DNA of 64,000 nucleotides from assembly GCA_963801605.1 (NCBI GenBank), contig CAWDFP010000006.1, positions 192,879-256,878 of the forward strand, given 5' to 3'. Positions 4,066-48,746 of the stretch are shown one piece after another (the first letter of the stretch is position 1; every line of letters starts with the position of its first letter). The notes beneath the pieces are model-generated. The model worked only from the letters and a program-made list of their open reading frames with translations. It made no database searches and was not told the DNA's origin. This DNA comes from an uncultured candidate division Zixibacteria bacterium (lineage in GTDB: Bacteria > Zixibacteria > MSB-5A5 > UBA10806). The translations under genes were made by a program, and so were the position numbers.

Positions 4066-5382
4066 CTATTTTAGCAAAACCATTTTTATACTCTGAGACT
4101 GATCGCCCGCAACCAGCTTCGCATAATACACTCCGGAAGGGACATTGTTTGCATCCCATATTATCTGATGGGGGCCTGGTTGTTCAAGGTTCTTTGAAAG
4201 AATCGCGATTTTCTGGCCTAAGAGGTTGTAGATGGAAAGCTCAACCTGTTCAGCTTTCGGTAAATTAAGGCTTATAGTCGTTCGGGCATTAAATGGATTA
4301 GGGTAATTTTGCGATAGCGAAAAACGACTGGGGATCCCTGGCTCGTCCTTAATATCCGTCGGAGAGAATCTCAGAATAATCAGGGAATCCCGGTCGGCAA
4401 CATAAACATAGTTATCAAGAGCGTAAATCCCGGTAGCAATATATGGCGTATTATAGGCTGCCGCTAATTGAGGTGCGGCTAAGTCGGATATATCAACTAC
4501 CTGGATACCCTCAACACCAAGAGCGAGGTAAGCATAATTACCGGAGGCATATACGGCATGCGCCCAGGCGGGAGTAGGGTATGACGCTCTTAAGGTTGGA
4601 CCTGTTGGATAGGTAATATTAATAATTTGCATGCCTCCAACTTCATCGGCAATATAGGCATGGGAGCGATATACGAAAAGATTATTGGCATATCCGGGAG
4701 TATCGTAGAATCCAAGCAGCGTTGGGCTGGCGGAATTTTCGATAGAAGCAATTTCCAGGCCGAAATTGCCATCGGCAATATAGGCAAATGAGCCCAAAAC
4801 GAATACGCCCAGAGGAGATCCATAGGGATCCATTAGAGTTCCGGCAAGCGCGGGATTGGTCCGATTTGATATGTCAATTATTTGCAGTCCGGATGCTACA
4901 TCAGCCACATAGGCATAGGTCCCGGTGACAAATACGCCAGTCGCCACGTCGGGAGTATCATAACTTCCCACTAAAATGGGGCTGGCGGGATTGATGATAT
5001 TCACTATTTGCAGCCCCTGATCTCCGGTAGCCAGGTAAGCATAGCTGCCGGTGAGATATATCCCATTTCCCTGGCCAACAAAACTAATTTGACCGACAAA
5101 TTGCGGATGATTAGGCTGGGCAATATCAAAAATCGTAAGATCGCTGCTTGAAAGGCAGTAGGCTCGGTTTGCCATGACACGAACATCATTTATATTTGAG
5201 CATGCCACCGAACCGATATATTCTATCTCCTGCCCAAAAGCTGATGGTATAGGTCCAAAGATAACGATTAGAAAAACTAAATTAATAATCCATCGACTAA
5301 TATATTTTCCGTCGAGTGAAGTTTCAATTAATGCCGTATCGATGTGAATTATGTTTTTCATTATTAAAATGCCTCTCGTCAA
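4066..5382 (-). CDS. LVIVD-repeat beta-propeller protein with T9SS C-terminal sorting domain
   Basis: Repeated units of the type GSYAYLATGDQGLQIVNIINPASP. C-terminal SLSQNYPNPFNARTTI...IKMVLLK. The start is uncertain (5382 or ATG 5361). Confidence 0.85.
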   Translation of the reverse strand: MTRGILIMKNIIHIDTALIETSLDGKYISRWIINLVFLIVIFGPIPSAFGQEIEYIGSVACSNINDVRVMANRAYCLSSSDLTIFDIAQPNHPQFVGQISFVGQGNGIYLTGSYAYLATGDQGLQIVNIINPASPILVGSYDTPDVATGVFVTGTYAYVADVASGLQIIDISNRTNPALAGTLMDPYGSPLGVFVLGSFAYIADGNFGLEIASIENSASPTLLGFYDTPGYANNLFVYRSHAYIADEVGGMQIINITYPTGPTLRASYPTPAWAHAVYASGNYAYLALGVEGIQVVDISDLAAPQLAAAYNTPYIATGIYALDNYVYVADRDSLIILRFSPTDIKDEPGIPSRFSLSQNYPNPFNARTTISLNLPKAEQVELSIYNLLGQKIAILSKNLEQPGPHQIIWDANNVPSGVYYAKLVAGDQSQSIKMVLLK

Positions 5383-7163: not shown

Positions 7164-7254
7164 TTTCTGGGCAATAGTCTCGCGGCGCGAGCCTTTGCGG
7201 TGATTGGAATCGGGAAGCGCCAGTTCCAGTTGTTCCAGCTTAAGCTGGGCGGGC

Positions 7255-26044: not shown

Positions 26045-26512
26045 CTATTCGAGAACGTGAATGTTCTTCTTGGCGCAGATATCCTTGAGTTCTTTCGGCC
26101 ACACCGTAACTGTCACTTCGCCGAGATGAGCGGTTCTGAGCAGATACATATAGGTGCGCGCCTGTCCAATACCACCGCCGATTGATAGCGGAATCTTGTC
26201 ATTCAGGATAGCCTGGTGATACGGCAGTTTGAGGAAATCAAGCTGGCCTGAGATTTCAAGCTGCTGCTTCATGGTTTCCTTGGTTACGCGGATACCCATC
26301 GAGGTCAGTTCATGACGGCGCTTGGTAACCGGGTTCCAAACCAGGATATCACCATTGAGACCATGAGTGTCTTTGCCGGTCTCATCCTTGGTCGGGTGTA
26401 ACCCAATCGTCGTAGTCGGCGGCGCGCATTTCGTGCGGATAGCCGTCCTTAAGCACCCAGCCGATACCAATAATAAAGACCGCAGGATATTCCTGGATGA
26501 TCTTGGTTTCAC
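26045..26512 (-). CDS. asnA: aspartate-ammonia ligase AsnA, C-terminal fragment
   Basis: ..HGLNGDILVWNPVTKRRHELTSMGIRV...IGGGIGQARTYMYLL.. parallels the E. coli AsnA C-terminus. Homology begins near 26397. Confidence 0.85.
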   Translation of the reverse strand: MKPRSSRNILRSLLLVSAGCLRTAIRTKCAPPTTTIGLHPTKDETGKDTHGLNGDILVWNPVTKRRHELTSMGIRVTKETMKQQLEISGQLDFLKLPYHQAILNDKIPLSIGGGIGQARTYMYLLRTAHLGEVTVTVWPKELKDICAKKNIHVLE

Positions 26513-27173
26513 GCTGTTTGCGCGGAAGATCCGGATACTTGGCCAGAAGGTCCTCGGCGTGGATGAATTCCAGCTTCTCGGGGATAGCAGGATATTTCGG
26601 ATTCTTCAAAGCCGGGAACATTTCCTGGGCAGCCAAACCGGCGCCGCGGATAACTTTCCAGATTTTCTGAACTGTATCTTTCAGATATTCGAGGTTGCGT
26701 TCTTTCGCGGTGATCCGACGTTCCCAATCCCACTGATCGACATAAGAGGAGTGATCATGATCAAGGAAGTAGTCTTTGCGGACAGCGCGCATATCGGTGC
26801 AGATACCTTCGCCAACTTTGCATTCGAATTGGGCCAGGGCCGTTCTTTTCCACTTGGTCGCGGCCTGCACCACCTGAGCTGTGATGCGGGGGTTGATTCC
26901 CAGGCCGCAGGGGAACTCCACGGGAGTCCGGGAACCGTCGCGGTCAAGGTAATCGTTGACGCCGCTGTCGCGGTCTACGATAAGCGGAACCTGAACCATA
27001 GAAAGGTTCAACTCTTTACAAAGATCATCTTCGATGTACCGTTTGATCGTGTAGAGCGCTCGCTGGGTATCCAGTCGGTTGAGCAGCGGGGCGTAATCGG
27101 TTGGTAGAATCTTCTCTACTTCTGGATACGTGCTGATGCCTGGACCGGCCAGATCTGCTTTTTTGTCAGCCAT
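26382..27173 (-). CDS. asnA: aspartate-ammonia ligase AsnA, N-terminal fragment
   Basis: AGGAG SD precedes the start. ..RAADYDDWVTP, then a 1-nt shift at the GGG run 26393-26395 joins to TKDETGKDTHGLNGD. Confidence 0.85.
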   Translation of the reverse strand: MADKKADLAGPGISTYPEVEKILPTDYAPLLNRLDTQRALYTIKRYIEDDLCKELNLSMVQVPLIVDRDSGVNDYLDRDGSRTPVEFPCGLGINPRITAQVVQAATKWKRTALAQFECKVGEGICTDMRAVRKDYFLDHDHSSYVDQWDWERRITAKERNLEYLKDTVQKIWKVIRGAGLAAQEMFPALKNPKYPAIPEKLEFIHAEDLLAKYPDLPRKQRETKIIQEYPAVFIIGIGWVLKDGYPHEMRAADYDDWVTPDQG

Positions 27174-27395: not shown

Positions 27396-29537
27396 TTATT
27401 TCAGCAGCATCATCTTGATCGTCTGGCTCTTCTCTCCTGTCTCCAAGCGGGCGAAGTAGAGGCCGGAGGGAAAAGCGGAGGCATTCCAAGTGAGATTGTG
27501 ATTGCCTGCGGTTTGAACGCCATTGAAGAGGACCGCCACCCGGCAGCCAAGAATGTCATAGATAGTAAGCTTGATATGGCCGCTTTCCGCAAGCGTGTAT
27601 CTTATGTTTGTTGTGGGGTTGAAAGGATTGGGGTAATTTGGGGAAAGGGAGAAATTCGACGGAAGACAGCGATCACTTTCAATACTCTGGGGAAAGCGTC
27701 CCAATATCAATAGCGAGGAAATATCCGTAAGATAAACCAAATCGGGTTCTGAAGAAACGCCCACCAATTCGCCAATAGATCCACAACTGTCGGCGATAAA
27801 TGGGCCAGCCGGGTTTGAAATGTCTATCATATAAAAGCCCCCCACAGCTTTGGCCACATAGGCATAATTTCCAGCAATCTCGAGATAGCGAGGCTCGTAG
27901 TATATCGAGCAATTGCCAACGATAACAGGATTGTAAGGGTTGGAAATGTCAAGCACCGTCAGACCGCTATCTAAGTCTGATACATAAGCATAATTGCCTT
28001 GTACATCGATTCCGTAAACTCTTCCGGGTGTCTGGTACGTTGAGGCTAATACAAGATTATAAGGGTTGGCGATATCAATGATTTTTAATCCACTGTATAA
28101 GCCTGTCACATAAACGAAGTTGCTTGCTACTTTCAAATCAACCGTTCCCGCCCCCGAAAAATCGTCAGCCAATATCGGATTAGTCATATCGGTAATATTG
28201 ACCGCCAGTAAGGCTCCGCTTCCTGCTAACAGATAGGCAAAATCTCCTTGTACCGCAACCCGCAATATATCTCCATAACGATATTGATAGCGACCCGCGC
28301 TAAGGGGGTTTGCCGGGTCGGCAACTTCAATGATTTGTAAACCGGAGTCGTTATCAGCGATGTATGCATAGTCGCCCCAAAGAGCGATATCCAAAGCCCG
28401 TCCCGGCGTTTCAAGAAACCCACAAACAACCGGATTGGCCGGGTCGGCCATATCTACTATTTTCAAACCGCCAACATCAAAGGCCGCGTAAACATAAATG
28501 CCCGAACAAGCGACATCCTGAGTCTCCCCCGAGACATCAAAGCTTCCCGCGAGTAAGGGTTCGGATGGATTGGAAATATCTACTATCTGAAGCGAACTCC
28601 CATCAGCTATAAAGGCAAAGTCAGCGGAAAGTAATATATCTGCGGCATATCCCGGGGTATCATAGCCCGAAAAATATGTAGGCTGCGCCGGATTCGTGAC
28701 ATCGACAATCTCCAGCCCGGTTTCATTACTCGATAGGTAAATATAGTTATCCTTTATGGCAATGTCGTTGGAGCCACTTGGGCCGTAATAGGAACCGACC
28801 GTATCGGGTTGGGAGGGGTCACCGACATCAATCACGATAAAGCCTAAATCCTCCATGAACTCCGGTAAAAATGTCAGTGCATAGACATAATCTCCGCATT
28901 CGACAAGCTTACCCCCGCGTTCATATACGGTGTACAAAGGAAAACTCCCGACAATCTGCGGATTCTGCGGATTTTCAACATTTGCTATGGTAAAATTATG
29001 GCCATATGCTCCGTTAAGGTAAGCATATTGCCCGGATACGCAAATACCGTAAAAATAGCCGCCCAAGACGCCCTCGAAGGAGGGATTGGCGGGATCTGAG
29101 ATATTATAGAATTTAAGGCCGGCACTTCCCAGCGCGATATAGACATATTGACCTTGAATGGAAAAATCAAATGCAGCGCCTAAATCTTCGATTGTTCCTA
29201 TACGCACTGGATTTATCGGATCGGCAATCGATAGAATTCTAAACGGACTATTCCTGCCGGAGCTCAAATAAGCATAATCGCCCGAGATTTTCAACTCACC
29301 TCCGGGTCCATCGATGGTGAGGCGGGTTAAGTAGGCGGGAGACTGCGGACTGGAAATATCGAGAATTTCTATGCCGTCGGAAAACACGCAATAGGCATAG
29401 TGATCTGATACCGCGACCGCGTAATTATAGCTCCACAGCGTTGAGCTAATGACCTGAAAGTTTTGGGCACGAGCGGGGCCGGTCCAGCAAATGCCTGTTA
29501 CCAAGGCCAAGATTACAATAATATTTAATCGTCTCAT
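27396..29537 (-). CDS. LVIVD-repeat T9SS cargo protein, array copy 6
   Basis: Signal peptide from ATG 29537 (MRRLNIIVILALVTG), many GDYAY..GLQI.D..NP units, and [17 protein letters not shown]...IKMMLLK. Confidence 0.85.
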   Translation of the reverse strand: MRRLNIIVILALVTGICWTGPARAQNFQVISSTLWSYNYAVAVSDHYAYCVFSDGIEILDISSPQSPAYLTRLTIDGPGGELKISGDYAYLSSGRNSPFRILSIADPINPVRIGTIEDLGAAFDFSIQGQYVYIALGSAGLKFYNISDPANPSFEGVLGGYFYGICVSGQYAYLNGAYGHNFTIANVENPQNPQIVGSFPLYTVYERGGKLVECGDYVYALTFLPEFMEDLGFIVIDVGDPSQPDTVGSYYGPSGSNDIAIKDNYIYLSSNETGLEIVDVTNPAQPTYFSGYDTPGYAADILLSADFAFIADGSSLQIVDISNPSEPLLAGSFDVSGETQDVACSGIYVYAAFDVGGLKIVDMADPANPVVCGFLETPGRALDIALWGDYAYIADNDSGLQIIEVADPANPLSAGRYQYRYGDILRVAVQGDFAYLLAGSGALLAVNITDMTNPILADDFSGAGTVDLKVASNFVYVTGLYSGLKIIDIANPYNLVLASTYQTPGRVYGIDVQGNYAYVSDLDSGLTVLDISNPYNPVIVGNCSIYYEPRYLEIAGNYAYVAKAVGGFYMIDISNPAGPFIADSCGSIGELVGVSSEPDLVYLTDISSLLILGRFPQSIESDRCLPSNFSLSPNYPNPFNPTTNIRYTLAESGHIKLTIYDILGCRVAVLFNGVQTAGNHNLTWNASAFPSGLYFARLETGEKSQTIKMMLLK

Positions 29538-29664
29538 AACTCGCCTCGCGTCACCTGTGATAATTTTCAAAGGCTGTGCTGATTTTTTAAAATAGATCCG
29601 GTACAGATAGATAAAGATACTGATTTCCAGGCATTTAACAAGAAAAAGGCGGGACGGCGTTCCA

Positions 29665-31782
29665 TTACTTCAGCAGCATCATCTTGATCGTCTGGCCTTT
29701 TTCCCCTGCCTCCAAGCGGGCAAAGTAGAGGCCGGAGGGAGAGGCGGAAGCGTTCCAGGTTATCTTGTGTTCGCCGGCTGGCTTCTGGCCGTCAAATAGA
29801 GTCTCCACCTTTTGACCAAGAAGATTGTAAATTGCCAAGCTCACAAGTCCGGGCTCAGAGAGAGAATAACGTATTGAGGTAGCCGCATTGAACGGATTAG
29901 GATAATTTTCGAGAAGAGAATATTCTTTTGGGTTTGGATTGAAATTTTCGATACCAATTTGATTCAGTCTTAGAATTGTTAGCGAATAGCCCTCCGCAAT
30001 ATAAATATTCTCCTGATCAATGCTGATACCCTGTATAATGCCCGGCGTTCGAGTGCTATCTATCAATGTTGGATTTGCGGGATTAGACACGTCTACTACA
30101 AAGAGATTCTCATCATTACCAATGTAAGCCAGATCGTCCGATACCTCTAAAACGAATGAGTACTGTTGAAATCTAAATTTACCAACTAATGTTGGCTGAG
30201 AGGGATTGGATACATTAATCACATACAAACCACTATCCTGTACTGTTAAATAGGCATAATTGCTGGAAACATCAATTCCAAAGGCAGGTTTCGGAGTGGC
30301 GTACCGAGCGGTAAAAACGGGATTAGTGGGATCAGTTACATTTAAGATGCTCATTCCGAAAGAGCCATCGGCCACGTAAGCATAATTCCCCGCAACATCA
30401 ACATTACAGCATACACCACTTGAATCAAACCGACCGGCCACTACAGGATTAAGCGGATTTGATATATCCAATATCCTCAGTCCATCGATCGAGCAGGTTA
30501 CATAGGCATATTGTCCAAAAATATGGACGTTTTCAACGGAAGCATGATCGATCAGGCAGCGCTCCACAGCCAGGGGATTGGATGGATCTGCAACACTGAT
30601 AATTTGGAGACCTGAATCGTGCTCAGCCACATAAATGTATTCACCAGATTGACAAATTTTTTCGGCATATCCCGATGTTTCGCATTGTCCACTAAGCTGC
30701 GGATACATCGGATCGCCGATATTCAATACTTTCAAACCGCCATCGCTATCGGCAACATAAGCATAACTTCCAGAAACGGTGACATCCTCCACTAGCCCGG
30801 ATGCGTCATGGAGGCCAATGAATGTGGGATTGCCAGGATTGGTAATATTAACTATTTGAAGAGATGTCAGGTCGCTTAGATAAGCATCGCTTCCTGAAAG
30901 AAAGATGTCATAAGTGTAACCGGGGGTATCAAAGCTGGAATAAAGTATTGGCTGTGCAGGATTTGAGACATCGACAATTTCCAAGCCGCTCATATATTCC
31001 GCTAAATAAATATAATTATCTCTTTGGGAAATACCGAAAGTGCCGGATGTGCCAGTATAATGGCTGACCATTTCTGGGCTGATGGAGTTGGATATGTCGA
31101 CCACCCAAAAACCCATTTCCTCGGATGCTACATAAGCATAATTACCTTCTACCGTTATTTTTTTGCCGCCTCCCAATAAGCTGCAACTACCAACTAATTC
31201 AGGACTCTGAGGATATCTCACATTAATAACGTCTAAAGAACCTTCGTAAAAGTTGCTGGCATAGGCATAATTCCCCAAAACATATACACCACCATAAGCA
31301 CCAGAGGCGATGATCCCCTCCAGAGTTGGATTGGCCGGATTTGAAATACCCAAAATATTCAAGCCTAGAAATCCAGCGGCGATATAAGCATAATTGCCAT
31401 CGATACACAGGTCGCTTGTATAGTCCTGCAAATCATAGCTACCTTCCAAAACGAGGTTAGCCGGATTGGCGATATTTATAATCTGAAACAAGCCCTCATA
31501 TCCGGATAACAAATAGGCATAATCGCCAACAATTTTTAGCTCGCCTTCCCTTGAGGGGAATAAAACCGTGGCAATTTCTAATGGAGATGCCTGGTTGGCG
31601 ATATCTAAAATCTTCAAACCTTCGGAATACAGGCAATAAGCATAATTACCGGAGACCTCGATCCCATAGACATTGCTCCAGAGGGTCGAAGCGACATATT
31701 CAATATTCTGGGCGGGTACAAGATTGGCGGAATAAATGACTGCAAAAACCGATAAAATCAAAATCTTAATAAATCGTCCCAT
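29665..31782 (-). CDS. LVIVD-repeat T9SS cargo protein, array copy 5
   Basis: GGGAGG SD, signal peptide MGRFIKILILSVFAVIYSANLVPAQ, LVIVD units and a T9SS CTD. Confidence 0.9.
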   Translation of the reverse strand: MGRFIKILILSVFAVIYSANLVPAQNIEYVASTLWSNVYGIEVSGNYAYCLYSEGLKILDIANQASPLEIATVLFPSREGELKIVGDYAYLLSGYEGLFQIINIANPANLVLEGSYDLQDYTSDLCIDGNYAYIAAGFLGLNILGISNPANPTLEGIIASGAYGGVYVLGNYAYASNFYEGSLDVINVRYPQSPELVGSCSLLGGGKKITVEGNYAYVASEEMGFWVVDISNSISPEMVSHYTGTSGTFGISQRDNYIYLAEYMSGLEIVDVSNPAQPILYSSFDTPGYTYDIFLSGSDAYLSDLTSLQIVNITNPGNPTFIGLHDASGLVEDVTVSGSYAYVADSDGGLKVLNIGDPMYPQLSGQCETSGYAEKICQSGEYIYVAEHDSGLQIISVADPSNPLAVERCLIDHASVENVHIFGQYAYVTCSIDGLRILDISNPLNPVVAGRFDSSGVCCNVDVAGNYAYVADGSFGMSILNVTDPTNPVFTARYATPKPAFGIDVSSNYAYLTVQDSGLYVINVSNPSQPTLVGKFRFQQYSFVLEVSDDLAYIGNDENLFVVDVSNPANPTLIDSTRTPGIIQGISIDQENIYIAEGYSLTILRLNQIGIENFNPNPKEYSLLENYPNPFNAATSIRYSLSEPGLVSLAIYNLLGQKVETLFDGQKPAGEHKITWNASASPSGLYFARLEAGEKGQTIKMMLLK

Positions 31783-31914
31783 GCTTTCCTCCCATCATCC
31801 CGGTCAGATTCAATTAATTAGATTGTACAGACGCTGTGCCAGCAGCGTCATCGTCCTAAAAGGATTATATACTACTTGCTCCGAGATAACAAGCCAAGCA
31901 TGGGCGGCGTTCCA

Positions 31915-34045
31915 TTACTTCAGCAGCGTCATCTTGATCGTCTCGGTTTTATCCCCTGCCTCCAACCGTGCGAAATAAATGCCGGAGGGAAAAGCGGAGG
32001 CATCCCAAGTGAGATTGTGAATGCCCGCGGTTTGAGCGCCATACGAAGGGGACCGCCACCCGGCAACCAAGAATATCATAAATCTCAAGTTTGATATGGC
32101 CATTTTCGGGAAGCGAATAGCTTATGGAGGTTGTGGGGTTGAAAGGGTTGGGGTAGTTACGCAAAAGAGAGTAACTTTCCGGAATGCTGCCTGCTTCTTC
32201 AAGGCCGGTGGGGCTAACTCTCAAAATAATCATCGAGTTTACATCGGAGACATAAACATAATCTCCGGCCACATATACGTCTCCCGCCCCGCCAGGGGTA
32301 TCATAGCCGCCGATAAGCTGGGGATGGCCGGGATCGGAGATATCGATCATTTCGACACCGGAGAGACCATCGGCTAAAAAAGCATGATCGCCGGAGACGA
32401 AAACGCCGCCGGCCTGCCCCGGCGAATCAAATTGTCCTACCAGGGTCGGAAGCTCCGGATCGGCGATACTTATAATCAACAGCCCGGCCTCATTATCAGC
32501 CACATAAACATAATCACCCGACATAGATAATCCCCAGGCAACATCGGGAGTCTGATAGAACCCAATCGTAACCGGATTATCGGGGTCAGAGATATCGAGG
32601 ATATCGAGCCTTCCCCCGTAGGCAGCAAGGCAGGCATAACCTCCGTCAACAGCGATATCGGTGAACGTACCAGAGATTTCCAAGCTATCTGCAAGTACGG
32701 GATTTGCAGGATTGGTGATATCAACCACTAGAAGGCCCCGCGACCAACTCCAATTGGGTAAATAGGCGTAATGGCCTGAAATGGCTATTCCGACAATGTG
32801 TCCTCCCAGATTAAGGCCGCCGATAGCTTGAGGATTGATGGGGTCCGAAATGCTAATTATTTCCAAAAGCCCTTCATAACCTGCTTCATAAATATAGTTG
32901 CCACTGACGGCGGTTTGGAAATCATCTGTTAGCGTCATAGATGAGCCGACGCAAATCGGATTTGAGGGATTGCCTATATCCATTACTTGAAGTCCGCCCG
33001 GCCCGGTAGCTACGTAGGCATAGGGCCCGGCAACCATAATATCTCCAGTCGGACCTGCCAGGCCGTAGCTGCCAGCGGAAAATGGGGCAGAGGGGTCGGC
33101 TACATTAATTATTTGAATGGATGATTCATCGGAGATATAGGCGTAGTCTCCGTAGATAGCGACATCTTGGGCGTTATCGGGTGTATCGCAAAAGCCCGAT
33201 AAAACCATATTGGCCGGATCTGAAATATCCACAATATCAAGGCCGGCATGGTATGTGGAAAGGTAGGCGTAATGGCCGGCGACACAGATGCCATAAGAGC
33301 CATCGCGGGATGTATAAAGCCCGACAGAAAAAGGATGCGACGGTTCTGTTATATCGATCGCCTGAATGCCGACTTCCTCTATGGCCAAGTAAGCGTAATT
33401 TCCTGCAATGTTGATTTCACTGTTGTATTCCCGAATGTAGCAGAAGCCCATAGGTATGGGATTTGACAGATCCGAGATATCTATGATTTCAAGCACCGTG
33501 CTAAAGCCGCTGTAGACGTTGGCATAGAGGTAATTGCCGGAAACATAGATTTCACTATAGCACTCTCCCATATTGATATTTGCCACCAATATTGGGGCTG
33601 AGGGATCGGTGACATCCAGGACATCCAAACCATATCCATTTCTCGCGAGAAAAACGTAATTACCATCGATGACGGCGTCAAAGGCCTCAGGAACATCATA
33701 ATGATATATTAAAGCGGGATTGGAGGGATCAGATATATCTACGATGCACAATCCAGTCCAGACATTTAGCAGGTAGGCGTAATTTCCGTATAATTTGATT
33801 TTATTTCTATCGGTCCCCAGAGAATTGCTAAAATATGGAAGGATTAACCGTCCAACAGGCGTCGGGTAGATAGGATTGGTAATATCCAATATTTGGAGGC
33901 CGTTGGCATAAAGACTGTAGGCATAGTGACCATCGATCTCGGTATCGAAAACGTCGGTCCAAAGCGAGGAACTTTCAAATTCAAGGATTTGGGCATATAG
34001 CGCTCCGTTGAACAGAAGGATGAAAAAGAGTATCCAGCGTTTCAA
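31915..34045 (-). CDS. LVIVD-repeat T9SS cargo protein, array copy 4 (frameshift in CTD)
   Basis: AAGGAGG SD plus TTG 34045 ([19 protein letters not shown]). A 1-nt shift at the G4 run 32048-32051 joins ..RVAVP to [17 protein letters not shown]...IKMTLLK (track ORF 31915..32103). Confidence 0.8.
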
Positions 34046-34231
34046 GTGTCCTCCTTTGGTAGATGAAAACCCAGCGCCCGCGATTTCTTTCTTAAATAAA
34101 TAAATTTCCCGTATCAACTCTAAAACGCACCCTGACAACAGAATGAAAAGTATTACAGTTCCACAATTTGCGGTAATCGCTGGTCCGGACGTTGAGTATC
34201 GGTTTTGCGAAAGAGAGAATTAGCGCCGCAT

Positions 34232-36361
34232 TTATTTGAGCAGCATCATCTTGATCGTCTCGGTTTTCTCCCCTGCTTCCAACCGGGCAAAGTAGAGGCC
34301 GGAGGGAAAGTCGGAGGCGTTCCAAATAATTTATGCAAGCCGGCAGTTTGTGTGCCATCGTAGGGAGCGTGTTACCTGCTGGCCAAGTATATTATAGATC
34401 GTAATCCTAACATGGCCGCTTGATGGCAGAGAATATCTGATACTCGTGGTTGCGTTGAAAGGATTGGGGTAGGCAGTAGGAAACGAGATTGCCTCAGGCT
34501 GCGCGCTGCCGGGATCGATACCCTCCGAGTGCAGTCTGACTACCAATAGAGCCGTCAAATCCGCCAAATAGATATGATTCTGGCTCTCCGCTATTCCTCG
34601 AACATAGCCCGGTGTTCGCAGGCTGTCAACAATAGTTGGATGATAAGGATCGGCCACATCAATTACATAAAAGTAACGGTCATCACCTCCAACATAAGCC
34701 AGATTGCCGCAAATATAAACTGTGTAACCGCCACCTTGAATGGGGCACCTGGAAATATACTCCGGGAGCAACGGGTTGGAAATATCAACTATAGCCAGGC
34801 AGTCATCCATCTCATTGCCGTCGTCCTTTCCGGCTACATAAGCATAATCTCCGGAGACTGCTACCCCGAAAATACTACCTGTCGGTCTGTACCGCCCGGC
34901 CACCGTGGGGTGCGTTGGATCGGTGATATTATAAATACCGAGACCGGCAAAACCGTCCGCGATATAAGCGTAATTGCCCTCTGTGACAACGTCAAGGCTA
35001 AATTGCACCGAATCATATTGCCCAACCAGCGTTGGAATGGAAGGATTTGATATATCCACAACTTGAAGTCCTTCCACTCCAGTGGCCACATAGGCATATG
35101 ATCCGCCGACTTCGACAGCAAGGGCCTCCTCGCCTAATCGACAGCTGCTTTCGATCTGAGGATTGGAGGGGTCGGCGATGTTAATTATTTGAAGGGAGCC
35201 GCTATCGCCGGATGCTATATAGGCATAGGCTCCCTGGGTAACAACATCATTGGCGTAACCCGGCAGCGCAAGACTTCCAATTTGCGCAGGGTCTGTTGGA
35301 TCAGTGATATTAACTATCTTTAAACCAGCCAGCCCATCGGCGACATAGGCATAACCTCCTGATGTTACCACTCCCACCGGGTTTCCCGAAGCGTCGTAGC
35401 TTCCAGCCAAGGATGGATGGGAAGGGTTGGAAATATCGATTACCTGAAGAGAGTAAAGATCAGCCATGAAAACATAATTACCTGAGATCTTCAGATCATA
35501 AGGATAACCGGGAGAATCATAGAATCCGACCCGGACGGGATTGCCTGGATTTGAGATATCGACAATATCGAGGCCGATCATATATGAAGCCAAAAAAGCA
35601 TAGCTGCCCTCAACTCCCATGCCAAAAGTATCAAATCCCCCATGATAATGGCCTACCTCGAACGGATTATTGGAATTGCTGACATTTATTATCGTAAAAT
35701 CTGTTTCCTCGCCCGGCACATAGGCATAATTTCCCGATACAATCACCTGCCAGCCGTGGTCATACGTTGGGCAGCTGCCGACAAATTCCGGAGTGGCAGG
35801 GTAGCTAATATCAAGGATTTGTATGTTGAAATCCGCTGCCAGGTAAGCGCATTGCCCCTTGACATAGACACCTCCGTAATCGCCGTAATTTACGTTTCCC
35901 TCAAGGAATGGATTGTCGGGATTGGAAATATCCACAATCTTTAATCCATTGTAGCTGCATGCCACGTATGCGTATCGTCCCAAAACAAAAACGTCGCCGG
36001 CAAACCAGCCAAGCTCGGCTCTCCCTAGCATAACAGGATGAGCAGGATCCGCAACGCTGACAATCTGAAGGATACCGTTGTAGCCGGAAGTAATATAAAC
36101 ATAGTTGCTATCGACAAAAAGGCTGCCATATTCCGAGGGAAACATGGTCTGACTGATTTCCACCGGTGTTAGAGGGTTGGCAATATCAATTATCTTAAAG
36201 CCGTTTGCATAAAGGAGGTAAGCATAATTGCCGGCGATTTCGACATGATCGGTTTCAGCCCAAAGACTTGAGCCAACCATTTGGATGTTTTGCGAAAACG
36301 CGAGGCCCGAGACAAATGCCAGGATAGCAGCAATTCGTATCAGAGTTTGCATCATGGTCAA
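34232..36361 (-). CDS. LVIVD-repeat T9SS cargo protein, array copy 3 (out-of-frame patch with TAA in CTD)
   Basis: The track ORF ends at TAA 34331-34333. The same frame resumes as [31 protein letters not shown] and ends at 34232. The 16 codons in between read correctly (YDGTQTAGLHKL) only in another frame. Confidence 0.8.
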
Positions 36362-36408
36362 CCTTCAACAATCCTTGAATATTTTATTAATGCCAAAAAT
36401 TCATTCCA

Positions 36409-38530
36409 CTATTTTAGCAGCATCATCTTGATAGTTTGGCTCTTCTCCCCTGCTTCCAAGCGGGCGAAGTAGAGGCCGGAGGGGAAGGCGGAGGCATCCC
36501 AGGTGAGATTGTGATTGCCTGCGGTTTGAGCGCCATTAAATGGAACAGCCACTCGATGGCCCAGGATATCGTAGATCTCAAGCTTGATATGGGCCATTTT
36601 CCGGACAGCGAGTAGCTTATGGTAGGTCGTAGGATTAAAAGGGTTGGGATAATTCCCAAAAATCGAAAACAAATTCGGAGTGATGTTGTGTTCCTCAACA
36701 CCGACAGAATTGAACCTCATGATGGTGAGCGCCGTAACATCGGCAAGATAAATATAATCTTGATCTATAAATATTCCCCTGGCGTGGCCCCCCATATAGC
36801 AAGTATCAGATAAAACCGGATGCGCCGGATCGGAAATATTTACTGCATAAAAACTATTCCCATCCTGTCCTACAAAAGCATAATCGCCTGAAATTGAGAC
36901 GCTATAAATGCTCTCATCCGTCAGAAATCTGCTAACCAAAGTGGGACTAGAAGGATTGGAAATATTAACCACGTAAACGCCGTAATTATAATTGGCCAGA
37001 TAAGCATAATTTCCGGATATGGCTACGCCAAATACCAATCCGGAAATTGGGTATCTGCCGGTGAGCGTCGGATAGTGTGGATCAGAAATGTTGATAATGG
37101 TAAGGCCGTGAGAACCGTCGGCAATATACGCGTAATTGTCAACCACTTGTACATCGAGGCAATTCACACCTGCGTCATACCAACCCACGGCAGATGGAAT
37201 TGACGGATCACTTATGTCGATCATTATAAGACCCTCCAAGCCGTGGCAGACATAAGCATAATTCCCGCTGACCTGCACCTGATAAGTATCCTCTCCTATC
37301 AGGCAAGATCCTACAGGCTGAGGGTTAGCGGGATCGGTAATATCAACGACCTGAAGGCCGAATATGTTATCGGCTATATATGCATAGTTACCCTCGACCC
37401 AGATGCCATCGGCATCTCCAAAAGAATCATTACTTCCCAAAATTTGTGGGGCGGCCGGATCGTCAACGCTCAATATTATAAGGCCCTTATTGCCGTCCGC
37501 GACATAGGCGCGATTTCCCAAAACATAAACATCATTGACAGCCCCGGATGCATCATAGCTTCCGGTAAAAGTGGGAATTGATGGTTCCGTGATATCTATT
37601 ATTTGAAGAGAAGACTCGTCTGCAGAATAGGCATAATTGCCCGAAAGAAAAACTTCGAACATAGAACCGGGTGTGTTGTAGCTGGAAAGGAGCGCAGGAT
37701 TTGCAGGATCGGTCACATCAACTATCTCCAGCCCGGATAGATATTCAGCCAGGTAAACATAATTATCCCTGACTGTTATGCCAAAAGAGACGGATGTGCC
37801 ATTATAATGACTTACGGTATCCGGATGGATAGGATTGCTTATATCGATTACCCAAAAGCCCATTTCGTATGACGTAACATAGGCATAGTCTCCGGCTATT
37901 GTAAGCTTGCCTACTTCATACCCGAGGTAGCAACTGCCGACAAATTCGGGGCTTTGCGGATACGATACATTTATGACATCTAAGCTCGCCTCGAAATAAT
38001 TAGATACATAAGCATATCGCCCGGATACGAAAATACCATTGTAACCGCCGGCCGCAATGCAGCCTTCCAACGTTGGATTACCCGGATTCGAAATATCAAA
38101 TATTTTCAGGCCTTCATAATCGGTGGTTATGTAGGCATAGCGGCCATCGATGAATATGTCACTCGAATAAGCCTGACACTCATAACCGCCTTCCGGGGTG
38201 GGATTGGCAGGATCGGATATATTAAAAATTTGAAAACGACCTTCATATCCCGACACGACATAGGCGTAGTCGCCGGAAATTTTCAAGGCCCCATCGTGCG
38301 TGGGGAAAAAGGCATTACTAACTAACACCGGAGAAGTCGAATTGGTGATATCGAGAATCTGAAGCCCGTTGGTATAGAGGCAATAAGCGTAATTACCGGA
38401 GATCTCGACCCCATAGAGATCGGCCCAAAGAGTCGATGACACAATCTCAAGATTCTGGGCTTGTACCGAATTGGTGGAAAAAGTATAGTGCAAGCATCGC
38501 GACGATTGATATCTGAAGAAGTCGTCCCAT
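36409..38530 (-). CDS. LVIVD-repeat T9SS cargo protein, array copy 2 (5' frameshift; out-of-frame patch in CTD)
   Basis: The true start is ATG 38530 (MGRLLQISIVAMLAL..), as in the duplicated copy at 38895. An extra T near 38486 shifts the frame. The CTD patch 36592-36624 reads TTYHKLLAVRKMAH where paralogs read TTxISYSLxxNGH. Confidence 0.8.
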
Positions 38531-39047
38531 CAAAGCTCCCGCCAACCCTATCGCAAATATCGTTATTCAGATAATAAAACCGCAAAGCAGATAGCGGCTA
38601 TCGCTCAAAAGCAAATAATAGCTAACTATCTCTGTGATAACAAGGAAAAGATTGCTATCCGTTCCATTATTTAAGGAGAACCACCAACCAACATCGGTGA
38701 GGCCGGATCGGTGATATTCAGAACCTGCAGGCCGTTGGTATAGAGGCAATAAGCGTAATTACCGGAAACCTCGACTCCATATAGATCGGCCCAAAGAGTC
38801 GATGACACAATCTCGAGATTTTGGGCTTGTACCGAATTGGTGGAAAAAGTAAGTGCAAGCATCGCGACGATTGATATCTGAAGAAGTCGTCCCATCAAAG
38901 CTCCCGCCGACCCTATCGCAAATATCGTTATTCAGATAATAAAACCGCAAAGTAGATAGCGGCTATCGCTCAAATCAGATAATAGCTAACCATCACTGTG
39001 ATAACAAGGAAAAGATTGCTATGCGTTCCATTATTTGAGGAGAACCA
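38344..39047. repeat. tandem direct duplication, two units of about 345-365 bp
   Basis: Units 38344-38687 and 38710-39047 align with about two dozen differences. Each holds the last 17 nt of a CTD, an intergenic promoter (TTGTTA-17-TATTAT on the minus strand at 38615-38643 and 38979-39007), an SD and about the first 60 codons (roughly 185 nt) of an LVIVD gene. Confidence 0.85.
38671..38898 (-). pseudogene. collapsed LVIVD paralog remnant (first ~70 codons fused to the last 17 nt of a CTD)
   Basis: MGRLLQISIVAMLALTFSTNSVQAQNLEIVSSTLWADLYGVEVSGNYAYCLYTNGLQVLNITDPASPMLVGGSP*. The junction runs into ..GGTTCTCCTTAAATAA, which is the VLLK-stop end of a CTD read out of frame. Confidence 0.75.
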
Positions 39048-42000
39048 TCTTGATTGTCTGCCTCTTCTCCCCTGCTTCCAGGCGGGCAAAATAGAGGCCG
39101 GAGGGGAAGGCGGAGGCGTTCCAGATGATTTGATGTTCACCTGCAGCCTCAGGGGCATTTAATAGCGTGGTCACCTTTTGGCCGAGGATGTTAAAGACAG
39201 TAAGCCTAACGGCGCAGCCCGATGCAACCGAATACTTGATAGTCGTAGCCGGGTTAAATGGGTTGGGGTAGTTTTGGGAGAGGGAAAAGGTTAAGGGAAT
39301 TGGTAATTGCTCTGGATTCAAGCCCGTTGCGATGCCAAGCCTTATATCCAGTTTCGAGGTATTGCCTATCAAGACATCGACATCAAGCGTCGTATCCGGA
39401 TATAATTGATGCGAAATGGATAATTGGCGGAGTCCTGGATGGATGCCTGAAAGGGCGAATCGGCCTACTAGGTCGGTTGTGTCGGTTTGTGGATAATTCT
39501 CGACACGAATAATTGCGTTGACAAGCGCCATGGAATCATTGCTAACGGTGCCAACTATCTGGCCATAGCCCTGATACTTTAGAATAAAAAAATAATAGTC
39601 GGTGGCGGTATAAATATAATCGCCTGAGACCAAGACGCCGAAGGTCATACCCTCAGTATCAAATGAACCGCTTAAGGAAGGATGGCTGAAATTATTGGCC
39701 ATATCGAGTATTTTTATGCCATCAAGATAGTTGGCCATGTATGCAAAATCATCCTGTACCCAAATATTAAGGGGAGGAGACTCGCCGAAATCATAATAAA
39801 TTCCGGCATGGGTTGGGTTCGCGGGATCAGAAATATTTATTATTCGGAATAAATTTCTATCAATTTCTCCGACATAAGCATAATTTCCCGAAAGGAAAAG
39901 GCCTTCTAATGCTCCGCGCATGAAAGTAGGAATGCTTCCCTCGAGGTGGGGATTCGCAGGATCTGATATATCAATAATAAGAAACGTATCGCTGAAATTT
40001 ACATAGGCATAATTTCCTCTAACTCTGACATGGCGTCTGGCCCCAAGATTGACCGGTAGAAGATAGCGGCCGACTAAAAATGGTTGTGCGGGATTGTTTA
40101 TATTGAGGATATACATGGAGCCATCCTCATACCACTCGCCTTCAAGAAGAAAGGCGTAATACCCTTGAACATCAATCGAAATCGCCGAATCGGAACGGTA
40201 TGCACCGTAGTGTATAGGCGAAGTGGGATTAGTGATATCAACCACTTCCAAGCCGTAGGAACCTCCAGCAATATATGCTTTATTGTCCTGCAAGCAAATC
40301 TCCCAGGCGTTTCCGGCAAACCCGTAACGATTGATTCTTACGGGCGCCTGCGGATTGGAGATGTCCATTATCTGCACTCCAAGGTTGGATGACGCCGTAT
40401 ACAGATAGTTTCCTCGAATCGCCATTCCGTATGCGTTTCCCGTATTGAAGCAAGAACCAACGAAATCAACTTCACCTGATGGCCGCAGAAGCCCCACGAA
40501 AATCGTCGTATCGCCGAGCATTACATTGATATCCTGAAATATTGAATCATGAAAATCAGAATGAGATATCGCCAAGCTGTATGTGCCCGGCCTGAGTCCG
40601 TTGAGCTCGAATGAGCCGATTGAATCAGTGACAGCGGAAATATCCTTGCCGCTTATTTTTACAAATGCGCCAAGAATTGCGGTATGGGAAGTATCAAATA
40701 CCGCTCCTCTGATGATACAATTTGGCGCCAAAGTAATATCTACCCGCGTTGTGTAATGGTAGTTTACATTTATATTGCCCAATCCATTTTCGACAAATCC
40801 GGGGCATGAATAGGACAAACTGCATGGCCCAGTGTGGATTTGGTCCAACAAAAAATGGCCTTGAACATCTGTTGTGGTTTTAACCCGCGAATCGGCAAGC
40901 TTTATTTCTACACCTTCAATCGGGTTACCGTTCAAATCATTCACATACCCTTCTATGTTCCCACCCGGCATATTTGTTAATCTTAATATTGTCAAATAAT
41001 TGCCGCCTGCCAGATAGATATAATCATTAGAGAGGCATAAATCCCAAACGGGGCTAATAGTATTAAATTGTCGAAATAGTGTAGGCCGTGTCGGATTGCT
41101 TATATTAACTATTTGAAAAATTCCGCCCGCAATATATGCATAATCACCTTGAACGACAATATTGTTGCCTCCATTAGATATTCGAGTAGAACCCACCAAG
41201 TTGGGAGATGATGGATTGGAAACATCGATTATTCGCAAAGATTTAGGCGAATCACCCACAAAATATACATACCTTCCGCGCACATATAGGCTAGTGGAAT
41301 AATTAATGGGGCTAACCCCAACTATCGCGAGATTTGCCGGATTGGTAATATTAATAATAGAAAGACCATGATTTAAATCGGCCGTATACGCATAATTTCC
41401 TTGTGTCTTGACATCAAGGAAATCATGTAATTCCGAACCATATTGGAGAATCCCAATTAGTGTCGGATCCCTCAGATTAGAGATATCATAAGCATAGAAA
41501 TACGGCCCGGCAGCCGTAAACGCATATTGGCCTTGAAGGGAAAGCGATCTGCCATATCCATTTAATAGATCCTCTCCAATCAAAACGGGATAATGAGGAT
41601 TAGAGATATTTACTATTGCGATAGTTCCTGAGCCTAGATAGGCATAATCTCCTCTAAGTTTAAGATCGAAAATTGGATAAGTGATATCTGATAGCCTGCC
41701 AACTAAAGCTAAGCTATCAATATTCGAAATATCCAGAACAAGCAAGCCATCCAATTCAGAATTTATGTATGCGTGATCATCTTTAATGGCAATTCTCGTA
41801 GCGCCGTAATAGGGAAAATAAAAGGTATCAATAAATTGTATCCCGACTGATAGATGTCTTTGCAAGACATTGATGCTCGTTACACTATCCGCAATTACTA
41901 ATATTTCTTCGAGGCAAGTGTCTGCAAAATCTAGGCACCAACAACATACGTCGTAAGCTCCTGGGGATAAATAATTAAATAGAAACGCTCCTGAAGAATC

Positions 42001-42207
42001 GGTGACGCTAGAAATTGAATCTACCACAACGGTGACATTGGCGAGAGGATTATTTGTCCAGGAATCGGTCACAATGCCTGAAATTGCCCCATACCTACCG
42101 GGTTGGGCCAGAGCGCCTATGGAAATATAGAAGACGAACAGGATGCAAATGAAGGCGGGGAATGTTTTTGCCATTTTGGGTTTAATAGACATTGATAATT
42201 TCATCAT
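39031..42207 (-). CDS. large LVIVD-repeat T9SS cargo protein with carboxypeptidase-regulatory-like Ig domains, array copy 1
   Basis: AGGAGG SD before ATGATG at 42202-42207. CarboxypepD_reg-like segments are present (GAISGIVTDSWTNNPLANVTVVV.., IEGYVNDLNGNPIEGVEIKL.., IVGTVSND..), along with LVIVD units and [26 protein letters not shown]. Confidence 0.85.
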   Translation of the reverse strand: MMKLSMSIKPKMAKTFPAFICILFVFYISIGALAQPGRYGAISGIVTDSWTNNPLANVTVVVDSISSVTDSSGAFLFNYLSPGAYDVCCWCLDFADTCLEEILVIADSVTSINVLQRHLSVGIQFIDTFYFPYYGATRIAIKDDHAYINSELDGLLVLDISNIDSLALVGRLSDITYPIFDLKLRGDYAYLGSGTIAIVNISNPHYPVLIGEDLLNGYGRSLSLQGQYAFTAAGPYFYAYDISNLRDPTLIGILQYGSELHDFLDVKTQGNYAYTADLNHGLSIINITNPANLAIVGVSPINYSTSLYVRGRYVYFVGDSPKSLRIIDVSNPSSPNLVGSTRISNGGNNIVVQGDYAYIAGGIFQIVNISNPTRPTLFRQFNTISPVWDLCLSNDYIYLAGGNYLTILRLTNMPGGNIEGYVNDLNGNPIEGVEIKLADSRVKTTTDVQGHFLLDQIHTGPCSLSYSCPGFVENGLGNINVNYHYTTRVDITLAPNCIIRGAVFDTSHTAILGAFVKISGKDISAVTDSIGSFELNGLRPGTYSLAISHSDFHDSIFQDINVMLGDTTIFVGLLRPSGEVDFVGSCFNTGNAYGMAIRGNYLYTASSNLGVQIMDISNPQAPVRINRYGFAGNAWEICLQDNKAYIAGGSYGLEVVDITNPTSPIHYGAYRSDSAISIDVQGYYAFLLEGEWYEDGSMYILNINNPAQPFLVGRYLLPVNLGARRHVRVRGNYAYVNFSDTFLIIDISDPANPHLEGSIPTFMRGALEGLFLSGNYAYVGEIDRNLFRIINISDPANPTHAGIYYDFGESPPLNIWVQDDFAYMANYLDGIKILDMANNFSHPSLSGSFDTEGMTFGVLVSGDYIYTATDYYFFILKYQGYGQIVGTVSNDSMALVNAIIRVENYPQTDTTDLVGRFALSGIHPGLRQLSISHQLYPDTTLDVDVLIGNTSKLDIRLGIATGLNPEQLPIPLTFSLSQNYPNPFNPATTIKYSVASGCAVRLTVFNILGQKVTTLLNAPEAAGEHQIIWNASAFPSGLYFARLEAGEKRQTIKMVLLK

Positions 42208-42487
42208 CAACCTCCTAAACCACATTTGGTTTTCGGGCCCGAAACTGAGGGAAATTTATGGATAGGAAATTTAGTCTATTAAATGGTTCTTGGCAAGTGA
42301 ATTATAATCGGTTCTCCCCTCCAACTTCCCATTTGACATTACCCCCCTTTGAGTTATCTTGAATTATTCAAGTGCGGTCAAGGGCCCGATCCTGACCGGA
42401 ATCAGTTCTTTGCGTCGGGTTCGGGGACCTGACGACACAATGATTTTTCATGGAAAGAATAAGCCGCGTTAAGCGTATAACAATAGA

Positions 42488-43165
42488 ATGAAAAAGCTCG
42501 CTTTAGCTCTCCTGGCATTCTCATTTATGGCCGTCATTTCCGATGGCCAATCCCAAAAAGCCGCTAACCCATCGGCGGTTACAATCGCCCGTCTAAAATA
42601 CGACGGCGGCGGCAACTGGTATTGGGGCCGATCCGCTATCCCTAATATGCACAAGTATTTAGCTGAGAACACCTCGATTCAGGTCGAGGACCGCGAAGTG
42701 GTCGTTACGGCCACCGATCCGGACCTTTTCAAATACCCATTCCTGTTTTTGACAGGGCATGGCAATATAAAATTTTCCGATGATGAAGTGACGGCCCTGC
42801 GAACCTATCTCGAAAACGGCGGATTCCTCTTTGCAAACGACAGCTATAGTCTAAATGAGGCATTCCGACGAGAAATGGCGCGTGTATTCCCCGACAAACA
42901 ACTTGTCGAACTGCCCTTTTCTCATCCGATTTATCATCAGCTTTATGATTTCCCCAACGGCCTGCCGAAGATTCATCAGCATGACGGCAAACCGCCGCAG
43001 GGATTTGCGATAATAATCGATGGCCGGGTGGCCGTCTTTTTCGACTTCGAATCAGATATCGGGGACGGCTGGGAGGACGCCGAGGTTTATAATGATCCTC
43101 CGGAAAAGCATCTGGCAGCCCTTCGCATAGGCGCCAATTTAGTGTCCTATGCCTTGACGCATTAA
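42488..43165 (+). CDS. DUF4159-domain exported protein
   Basis: Signal peptide. ..ARLKYDGGGNWYWGRSAIPN.. and ..FLFLTGHGNIKFSDDEVTALRTYLENGGFLFANDSY.. Confidence 0.75.
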   Translation: MKKLALALLAFSFMAVISDGQSQKAANPSAVTIARLKYDGGGNWYWGRSAIPNMHKYLAENTSIQVEDREVVVTATDPDLFKYPFLFLTGHGNIKFSDDEVTALRTYLENGGFLFANDSYSLNEAFRREMARVFPDKQLVELPFSHPIYHQLYDFPNGLPKIHQHDGKPPQGFAIIIDGRVAVFFDFESDIGDGWEDAEVYNDPPEKHLAALRIGANLVSYALTH

Positions 43166-43173
43166 GAGGTCGT

Positions 43174-46100: not shown

Positions 46101-46530
46101 GCAATTGGCCGCCCAGCAGGAAGCGCTTCGCCAGCAGCTTCAGGAGATGAACGATCAATTCGGAAAACAAGGCGATATGTTAGGAAGACTCGACCAGCTT
46201 GGCGAAGAAATGAAAAAAGTTGTTGACGATATGCAAAGATCGAAAGTCAATCAGGAAACGATAAAGCGTCAAGAGGGAATCTTAACCAGGCTTCTTGATG
46301 CTCAGAAGTCTGTCAACCGCCGCGACTATTCCAAAAAACGCCAGGCGGAAACCGGAGAGGATATCGTCAGAAAAAGCCCCTTATTGCCGGATGAACTGGC
46401 CAAAGGTCAGGGAGAGCTTTCGGAAATGATTAAGAAAGCGCTCGAAGAACAGTATCCCAGACAATATGATAAACTGATCAAAGCTTATTTCAAATCATTC
46501 CAAAACCAGGAAGTCCAGAATGAAAAATAA
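43174..46530 (+). CDS. 1118-aa membrane-anchored, Q/K/E-rich coiled-coil protein (DUF4175-like)
   Basis: N-terminal TM helices, a beta-rich middle region, and a long low-complexity coiled coil (..QQLQQLMEEV.., ..MQQMQKMSEMQ..). It starts 9 nt after the DUF4159 gene. Confidence 0.6.
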   Translation: MPQEQYSGIVARLRALQAKMAGLDAARGLVRCLSLLILAFVLLVLLTKIVWPSSTLRIIIDLIIILGLAAAFYFFVIKPYTQRQGFLALARLLETKYGKFQSRLIAALELHETAVKNREGYSLELIEKTIDEAGGVIADIDINAVVNYRPIRRSISRLAVALVVILSVSFLNSTSAYNAWMLFTHPTANLEKPPEFSLTIKPDGGEIFRNTDLAVQAKADGRIPRHVDLYYKFEDGAWTSEAMGRSDSISLATFAYTFKKVKRSVDIYAKSGGVSSRRAHLEIVDPPRLTDISLTFDYPQYSGLPQSHGNPNDGNVAALRGTKITITASSNKPLSECYQLFADSARVPLEVDGDKISGGFAVKDNGRYTLIMKDKAGRINPEPIWYDIQAMDDYPPTITIRFPGADIDLDEHITLPLELGITDDYGFDKLNLVYWMQSEGGQTEPVKEAIKIPDKRTLDQVVDYTWSLQSLNPLPGDLIFYYCEVADNDIVSGPKWAKSRTFSARLPNLDEILADVQGSQEQQMESLDQALKNQKDLQKQIEDIAREMQKTSNVNWEKKQQAQQVLEKQQEVAKKIEELSKDMQSNLDKLENNKLVGEQIAEKMQQLQQLMEEVAPPELKDAMQKLQDALQKMDPEALKKALQQFQLTSEQLLENLERTISLMQKLAIEQKMDMLVQMAEKINEAQKEINKAVDAARDSSELAKQQSPENINSSDCKSLQKQFDELLKMDEKEQMVPKNEKADATEKVNNPEIQQDFLQMNPSLCSGGKPSSQKTGKKLQSELSDMADALKKAQQAMQNEQKMEIAKKMQKAAEDLLYLSGRQENLLDSTKTNLTTGDGLRRMASNQMQIANASARIADNISELSKESIFINMALMNLLGSSLSNMNIATDQLDKRFAPGAIQNEQLAMSNLNKTVYLLLDARNNAMNSGSGSGMQEMMQQMQKMSEMQAGINGQTMMQMPQPGMSMNFGQQQAMGQLAAQQEALRQQLQEMNDQFGKQGDMLGRLDQLGEEMKKVVDDMQRSKVNQETIKRQEGILTRLLDAQKSVNRRDYSKKRQAETGEDIVRKSPLLPDELAKGQGELSEMIKKALEEQYPRQYDKLIKAYFKSFQNQEVQNEK

Positions 46531-48346: not shown

Positions 48347-48615
48347 TGAGCAGATTCTTTCTCGGCAGGCTTACGCTGCTGGGCCGCAGTACTGGCCTTA
48401 AATCGGGTAAGCTCTTCCTCAAGATCGGTAACTTTGGCAATAAGGCCTTCGACTCTTTTAATTTTCATTTTCATACTGGTCCGAACCAGAAGGCCAAGTG
48501 AAATGAGCATGAAAATAACGGAATCGACCCGGCGGAAAATTTCGCCATAGCCAAAGAAGGTATCCAGAAAGGCTAGAACCCCGAGGATAAATAGAATAAC
48601 GCACCATGCCAACAT
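48343..48615 (-). CDS. small two-TM membrane protein with C-terminal coiled coil
   Basis: 90-aa ORF, convergent with the TPR gene. Confidence 0.45.
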   Translation of the reverse strand: MLAWCVILFILGVLAFLDTFFGYGEIFRRVDSVIFMLISLGLLVRTSMKMKIKRVEGLIAKVTDLEEELTRFKASTAAQQRKPAEKESAH

Positions 48616-48746
48616 ATTTCCTCCAAATTAAATTGACTCCTATTATGATGTCGACAGGCGGGGAACCTTTCTTAAGCCGGAGAATTAAAAATTGACAAAA
48701 CTGTGCTCGGTGACTATGTTGAGTGGTTTGATATTTAAGGAGGCGC

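Follow-up and report, generated by a model that had tools for sequence, protein, structure and literature searches.

A tandem array of LVIVD double-propeller genes with similar type IX sorting tails in a Zixibacteria genome

Results

Six LVIVD genes with a sorting domain lie in tandem

We studied a window of 64,000 nucleotides (nt) of contig CAWDFP010000006.1 (assembly GCA_963801605.1) from an uncultured Zixibacteria bacterium, in which six consecutive open reading frames (ORFs) made of LVIVD repeats span positions 27396-42225 on the minus strand. The source genome (G000) is a metagenome-assembled sequence of 3.06 Mb in 14 contigs, 86.9% complete. An earlier note, made from the letters alone, had described these genes as cargo of the type IX secretion system (T9SS) with homogenised 3' ends, a pattern taken to fit repeated duplication plus gene conversion at the ends. 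As deposited, the ORFs occupy 27396-29570, 29665-31782, 31949-34138, 34331-36361, 36409-38493 and 39031-42225. Read through several insertions or deletions (indels), the genes are as follows, together with a further LVIVD gene of the window, g7, which served as internal control.

27396..29537, minus strand: g1, LVIVD double-propeller T9SS cargo gene, 713 amino acids (aa), ATG at 29537 (the ORF reaches TTG at 29570), intact
29665..31782, minus strand: g2, 705 aa, intact
31915..34045, minus strand: g3, probable TTG start at 34045 after AGGAGG; the deposited ORF ends at 31949
34232..36355, minus strand: g4, ATG at 36355, premature stop at 34331, homology continuing to 34232
36409..38530, minus strand: g5, ATG at 38530, 705 aa with indels removed
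39031..42225, minus strand: g6, 1064 aa, two propellers interleaved with four CarboxypepD_reg domains, plus the sorting domain, intact
4066..5382, minus strand: g7, LVIVD protein of 438 aa with one propeller; its sorting domain has a different tail subtype

The ends that the earlier note gave for g3 and g4, 31915 and 34232, are thus the homologous stops reached through the indels, whereas the deposited ORFs stop at 31949 and 34331.

Searches against Pfam and NCBIfam bore out the description of six minus-strand LVIVD genes with a T9SS sorting domain. Pfam finds 9-13 stretches of the LVIVD family PF08309 in each of g1-g6 (E 1e-85 to 1e-113) and 5 in g7, with scores of 171-370 bits against a gathering cut-off of 20.2, and the NCBIfam model of the T9SS type A sorting domain, TIGR04183, matches g1, g2, g5, g6 and g7 at 38-47 bits (cut-off 23). 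At the C-terminus lies the Por_Secre_tail / PF18962 domain, which as deposited scores 17.6 bits in g3 and 22.6 bits in g4, below the Pfam cut-off of 27, because the indels break the frame inside the domain; read through the indels, both tails align fully. By inspection, with no predictor, the N-termini of g1, g2, g3, g4, g6 and a gene remnant described below carry a hydrophobic stretch followed by A-Q, and the signal peptide of g5 is severed by a +1 indel. The resemblance of signal peptides claimed for the copies at large holds among g2, g5 and the remnant (MGR...), which also have the closest bodies, and not for the others. Likewise, g7, which had been counted as a seventh family member, combines LVIVD repeats with a sorting domain, but its tail is of a different subtype, only 54-62% identical in nt to the array tails.

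The same genome encodes a PorU sortase (701 bits; cut-off 420) and an SprA/Sov translocon (566 bits; cut-off 200), both in open frames, and contains ∼100 sorting-domain genes; the label of T9SS cargo is therefore reasonable for the six genes. The GldM model gave no match in this genome (87% complete), and none in the control genomes either. The genome holds ∼43 LVIVD ORFs, the family amounting to ∼30 loci; further clusters lie at C11:86404-97683, C13:7108-11940 and C7:104586-106780, several of them split into 2-4 ORFs. An AlphaFold2 model of g2 (predicted local distance difference test score 87.8) has 14 four-stranded blades, that is, two propellers, and a seven-stranded sorting-domain sandwich, and its best PDB match is PorZ (5M11; E 1e-21, TMq 0.56, 13% identity). 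The LVIVD family is very large, with more than 6,800 database proteins at E<=1e-20. Among the matches listed in two word-based searches, with g2 and g5, the closest proteins outside the genome are 27-42% identical; no close orthologue of either was found among the best 8,000 candidates, a weak negative since the search also missed known paralogues, and an exact look-up of g2 matched no contig.

The 3' ends are far more alike than the gene bodies

The contrast between diverged bodies and alignable 3' ends was confirmed by pairwise alignment, which gave 42-59% nt identity (28-53% at the amino acid level) for the bodies versus 74-90% nt identity, with a mean of 85%, for the last 30 codons of the six copies. 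Between most gene pairs, blastn aligns the 3' ends only, over 93-261 nt at 75-88%. The features concerned are as follows.

27396..27488, minus strand: conserved tail of g1 (last 30 codons plus stop); 74-90% nt identity among tails, G+C content at third codon positions (GC3) 0.70-0.80
29665-29757, 31915-32007, 34232-34324, 36409-36501 and 39031-39123, minus strand: the equivalent tails
31864..31917, minus strand: non-coding junction after the g3 stop, TAATGGAACGC ... TTGTTA-17 nt-TATAAT, promoter-like and upstream of g2
38979-39033 and 38615-38669: the same junction; it recurs in part past the g2 stop, at 29630-29667

Third-position identity is 0.47-0.80 in the tails versus 0.28-0.41 in the bodies, and where a degenerate amino acid is identical, codons agree in 66% of tail cells versus 42.5% of body cells. 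The tails have a GC3 of 0.70-0.80 and the bodies one of 0.40-0.49; the four intact array tails rank 1-4 in GC3 among 95 sorting-domain genes, and the six array tails are the most mutually similar among the ∼100 sorting-domain tails of the genome. In four junctions, the likeness runs beyond the stop codon (TAATGGAACGC ... CTTGTTA).

Bodies and sorting domains have conflicting genealogies

In a tree of the gene bodies, g1-g5 form one clade (95/97) with long branches, in which g2 and g5 are sisters and g3 is basal, and g6 falls outside this clade; the repeated duplication that had been proposed is supported by it. A two-gene duplication unit, considered because tail subtypes alternate, is contradicted by the same tree. 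In a tree of sorting-domain DNA, g1, g3 and g5 instead join the gene of another species of the genus, G001 (90/96). The body alignment rejects a clade of g1, g3 and g5 (approximately unbiased (AU) test, p = 0.0006) and rejects it with the G001 gene included (p = 1.8e-5). The genealogies of bodies and sorting domains thus conflict, as gene conversion would have it.

We then applied a GENECONV-like maximal-segment test to silent sites only, in frame-corrected codon alignments. The g1-g3 pair has a tract in which 48 of 59 codons are identical (p = 0.0002), and nominal tracts were found for g1-g5 (p = 0.009), g2-g3 (p = 0.022) and g5-g6 (p = 0.022); the best segment falls in the sorting domain for 11 of the 15 pairs. 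The test is confounded by the high GC3 of the tails. In the proximal sorting domain of g1 and g3, GC3 is ∼0.5, yet 31 of 40 codons are identical.

A tandem duplication and differing copy numbers

Recombination of another kind has left its trace between g6 and g5.

38317..39047, minus strand: tandem direct repeat of 366 nt (units 38683-39047 and 38317-38683)
38671..38895, minus strand: remnant mini-ORF (74 codons) in which a signal peptide and first blade like those of g5 are followed directly by a copy of the tail end and a stop

Identity between the two units is ∼95% in their first 300 nt and ∼75% in the final 67 nt, and each comprises the end of a tail followed by intergenic DNA, a signal peptide and a first blade. 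The remnant, a partial further copy within the array, is formed by the upstream copy of the repeat. The duplication testifies directly to unequal or illegitimate recombination within the array.

The length of the array, which the earlier note had proposed to compare between related genomes, indeed differs: six genes stand against three in a close relative and one or none elsewhere.

G000: six genes plus the remnant between asnA and DUF4159
JGI contig of 18,023 nt (sample 3300075153): asnA, three minus-strand genes (705, 706 and 705 aa), DUF4159 (product 96% identical) and the same downstream genes
G001, same genus: one 718-aa LVIVD gene beside DUF4159, then the contig end
L040, a more distant metagenome contig: one 488-aa LVIVD gene; DUF4159 79% identical
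G002: no LVIVD gene in the 1.26 kb up to the contig start
G003, G004 and G008: no LVIVD gene beside DUF4159
G006: no LVIVD gene in the 4 kb up to the contig end

Because copy number differs between close relatives, the description of a variable surface-protein family is plausible in that respect. The flank at 42488-51452 of the window reads DUF4159, a DUF4175-like gene (1118 aa), a TPR gene (608 aa) and a TMEM260-like glycosyltransferase gene (901 aa); this gene order is conserved within the Zixibacteria family concerned, across several genomes and metagenome contigs, with the LVIVD genes at the variable edge of the flank. The DUF4159 neighbour has named relatives in Candidatus Zixiibacteriota.

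Frame breaks in array genes, asnA and other sorting domains

The interruptions of g3, g4 and g5, and one in the gene that flanks the array, lie as follows.

near 32036-32050: g3, +1 inside the sorting domain, homology continuing to the stop at 31915
near 34363-34375 and 34322-34336: g4, +1 and -1 in the sorting domain, with the stop between them
38480-38491: g5, +1 in the signal peptide
36589-36630: g5, three +1 in the first strand of the sorting domain
26045..27173, minus strand: asnA, split by a +1 frameshift near 26378-26399

The three sorting-domain indels of g5 fall within ∼40 nt and jointly restore the frame, insertions account for eight of the nine indels noted in the window, and ∼13 kb of array body sequence is without a frame break. 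The two asnA ORFs correspond to residues 4-234 and 234-344 of AsnA proteins whose structures are solved, and the contig of the close relative carries an intact asnA of 375 aa. Because this neighbouring gene is frameshifted too, the indels of g3, g4 and g5 are probably consensus errors rather than real pseudogenisation. Across the genome, sorting domains whose halves lie in different frames number 13 of 110, versus 0 of 64 sampled in the complete genome of a relative, G008, although the long bodies upstream of them remain open; sorting domains are thus either a hotspot of errors or the only part subject to real decay. Examples lie at C6:224796-225051, C7:151533-151788 and C6:103559-103829. In the window itself, at 57020-59597 on the minus strand, a 341-aa sorting-domain ORF and an upstream 536-aa ORF overlap by 59 nt in different frames and are probably one frameshifted cargo gene.

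Tails of the same subtype occur on other cargo genes

In relatives, the same tail subtype is found on tandem arrays of other cargo families. In G008, three adjacent genes with unrelated bodies have in common a sorting-domain cassette of ∼240 nt with high nt identity, which starts exactly at NYPNPF, ends at the stop codon and has a GC3 of 0.83-0.87.

G008:C1:984000-996000, 4015-8631 (locus L012): a 283-aa protein, a 720-aa LVIVD propeller and a 466-aa FG-GAP-like protein, all with the cassette

In both G000 and G008, tails that have a near-identical neighbour, as judged by codon positions 1 and 2, have a GC3 of 0.61-0.66 versus 0.50, and tail GC3 correlates with similarity to the nearest tail (rho 0.23, p = 0.017 in G000; rho 0.53, p = 8e-6 in G008). 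The correlation, drawn from related sequences, fits GC-biased gene conversion and falls short of proof.

Discussion

Constraint, codon usage and recombination in the likeness of the tails

We consider it probable that the locus is a lineage-specific tandem array of anciently duplicated genes for secreted double-propeller proteins, whose tails are kept alike by constraint, a particular codon set and occasional recombination. The secreted product of each gene would consist of a signal peptide, two seven-bladed LVIVD β-propellers and a type A T9SS sorting domain, and would probably be exported by the PorU/SprA system of the genome and displayed on the cell surface as a putative binding module, a role suggested by the architecture of the propellers. 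The likeness of the tails would have three causes. The heaviest would be near-invariant amino acids, presumably kept for recognition by the secretion machinery; the next an unusual set of C/G-ending codons, which the tail subtype keeps across genera; and the last occasional ectopic recombination between copies, by gene conversion or exchange of sorting-domain cassettes, through which the tails' history would come to differ from that of the bodies. Copy number would be altered by unequal or illegitimate recombination.

A number of observations weigh against this account. The clade examined by the AU test was chosen after the sorting-domain tree had been seen, and the short sorting-domain alignment does not reject g2 and g5 as sisters (AU p = 0.138). 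The maximal-segment test found no significant silent-site tract in 11 of the 15 pairs. The tracts are 82-90% identical and, besides the 366-nt duplication, none exceeds 90%; any conversion is therefore old. Ordinary orthologues of G000 and G001 are near synonymous saturation (0.42-0.51), and the tails within the array are not clearly closer to one another (85% nt identity, same-codon fraction 0.66) than to the tail of the G001 gene (82% and 0.63). Tails of the same subtype (W[DN]AS..PSG.YFARLE...IKM.LLK) in seven other genomes have 0.36-0.64 of their codons in common with the array, 0.49 when pooled, so that 0.66 is not far above other genera, and codon bias alone predicts 0.45-0.51. Because the array fraction is close to that of G001 and not far above the other-genus and codon-bias values, recombination is not needed for most of the tail likeness. 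Moreover, three of the six array genes are interrupted as deposited.

If these points are pressed to their end, old duplications, a nearly invariant run of the last 30 residues and codons fixed by selection or mutation bias would suffice without any conversion. Such pure constraint, which we hold to be possible though doubtful, draws on the closeness of the G001 tail and the many pairs without a tract, on the ∼80% nt identity that identical amino acids alone would give, and on the codons of P-S-G, which read CCC TCC GGC in 20-22 of 23 same-subtype tails of the seven other genomes. (The triplet is not near-invariant in other PSG tails of G000, and genus-specific amino-acid variants of the tail exist across other genera.) It sits poorly with the identical codons of the g1-g3 proximal domain at a GC3 of ∼0.5, with the rejection of the sorting-domain clade by the bodies, with the likeness past the stop codon in four junctions and with the cassette common to unrelated bodies in G008. 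On the sequences at hand, near-invariant residues and a GC3-rich codon set appear to explain most of the likeness, with recombination that is not recent added to them. To the question raised earlier, whether amino-acid constraint alone accounts for the 3' ends, the answer is that constraint together with codon bias explains most of the likeness. The g1-g3 tract and the tree conflict remain in favor of the proposed conversion at the ends, and the term "homogenised" overstates the case when 11 pairs lack a tract and the G001 gene is as close. What the alignments support is some recombination at the 3' ends, probably as a contributor and not as the main cause.

The remaining explanations shift the weight elsewhere. 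That consensus building or polishing over multi-copy sorting domains produced both the similar ends and the indels seems very improbable to us: the excess of split sorting domains over G008, the asnA frameshift absent from the close relative, the preponderance of insertions and the incompleteness of the genome speak for it, but such an artefact would yield identical copies, whereas the observed ones are 82-90% identical and each has substitutions of its own, independent genomes show the same tail subtype and arrays, ∼13 kb of bodies are free of frame breaks, and at most the indels would be explained, not the likeness. It is scarcely more credible that the tail, the stop and TGGAACGC...TTGTTA-17-TATAAT form a conserved regulatory unit, be it a promoter or operator for the gene that follows or an element of the mRNA. 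Two observations would suit this idea: g2, g3, g6 and the remnant share a non-coding motif past their stops, in which hexamers resembling -35 and -10 boxes stand 17 nt apart, and synonymous sites are conserved across genera; against it, promoter-like matches number 33 versus 34.1 in shuffles (neither the promoter nor the terminator scan did better than shuffles), g1 and g4 lack the motif and g5 has a degenerate form of it, the likeness in G008 ends at the stop codon, and a candidate stem, CCCCT/AGGGG, sits in codons that vary between genera (by inspection, with no covariation test). A Chi-like or uptake-signal role of CCCTCCGGC was considered separately and rejected (33 copies versus 14 expected genome-wide). 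A bolder proposal gives recombination the larger part. Because of the G008 cassette, the GC3 of 0.61-0.66 versus 0.50 and the top rank of the array tails in GC3 among 95 genes, the ∼240-nt sorting-domain segment could be a portable cassette that moves between neighbouring cargo genes, frequent ectopic conversion leaving a GC-biased footprint at third positions; we put this forward tentatively and think it unlikely on balance. Were it so, the GC3-rich tail found across genera may mark a sub-genic recombination hotspot and not protein selection alone.

Implications and comparison with known systems

Under the account that we prefer, that of an old tandem array with tails held alike mainly by constraint, the locus illustrates how a surface-protein family expands and is remodelled in T9SS-reliant bacteria outside Bacteroidota, here in a genome with ∼100 cargo genes. 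It also exposes a pitfall, namely that without other species as a yardstick, nt similarity in a conserved secretion tail may pass for gene conversion. Should the GC3-rich tails prove to be conversion hotspots, they would offer a compact natural system in which to study GC-biased gene conversion in bacteria; failing that, the locus is a variable surface-protein array of the ordinary sort.

Three known systems resemble the array. Cell-surface proteins with LVIVD repeats (PF08309) were described by Adindla et al. 2004 (PMC2447325), and like them the array genes carry tandem 42-residue units on exported proteins; the array differs in that its repeats form two propellers followed by a T9SS tail. 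Membership in the choice-of-anchor B family (TIGR04312), a related fold, was rejected (41-84 bits versus a curated cut-off of 100). PorZ of Porphyromonas gingivalis, a surface component of the T9SS, likewise has two β-propellers followed by a C-terminal sorting-domain sandwich, but it is a single-copy part of the machinery, whereas the array family has ∼30 loci per genome. Orthology with PorZ was rejected, the PorZ_N_b_propeller model passing only in g5 (29 versus 27 bits), with 20 bits in g3 and none in the others; to judge from the predicted model, the likeness to PorZ is structural only. Finally, the P. gingivalis T9SS cargo proteins RgpA, Kgp and HagA undergo domain rearrangement and allelic exchange (Dashper et al. 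2017, PMC5266723). There, too, a conserved T9SS C-terminal domain accompanies modules that are reshuffled by homologous recombination or gene conversion, but it is adhesin domains that are exchanged, and these are almost the same between loci and strains, whereas in the array it is the sorting tail itself that the genes have in common, the tracts, at 82-90% identity, are old and the array is that of one genome. Tandem families of T9SS surface proteins that vary in copy number, with sorting domains that evolve as mosaics, are well known, and the array is one of them.

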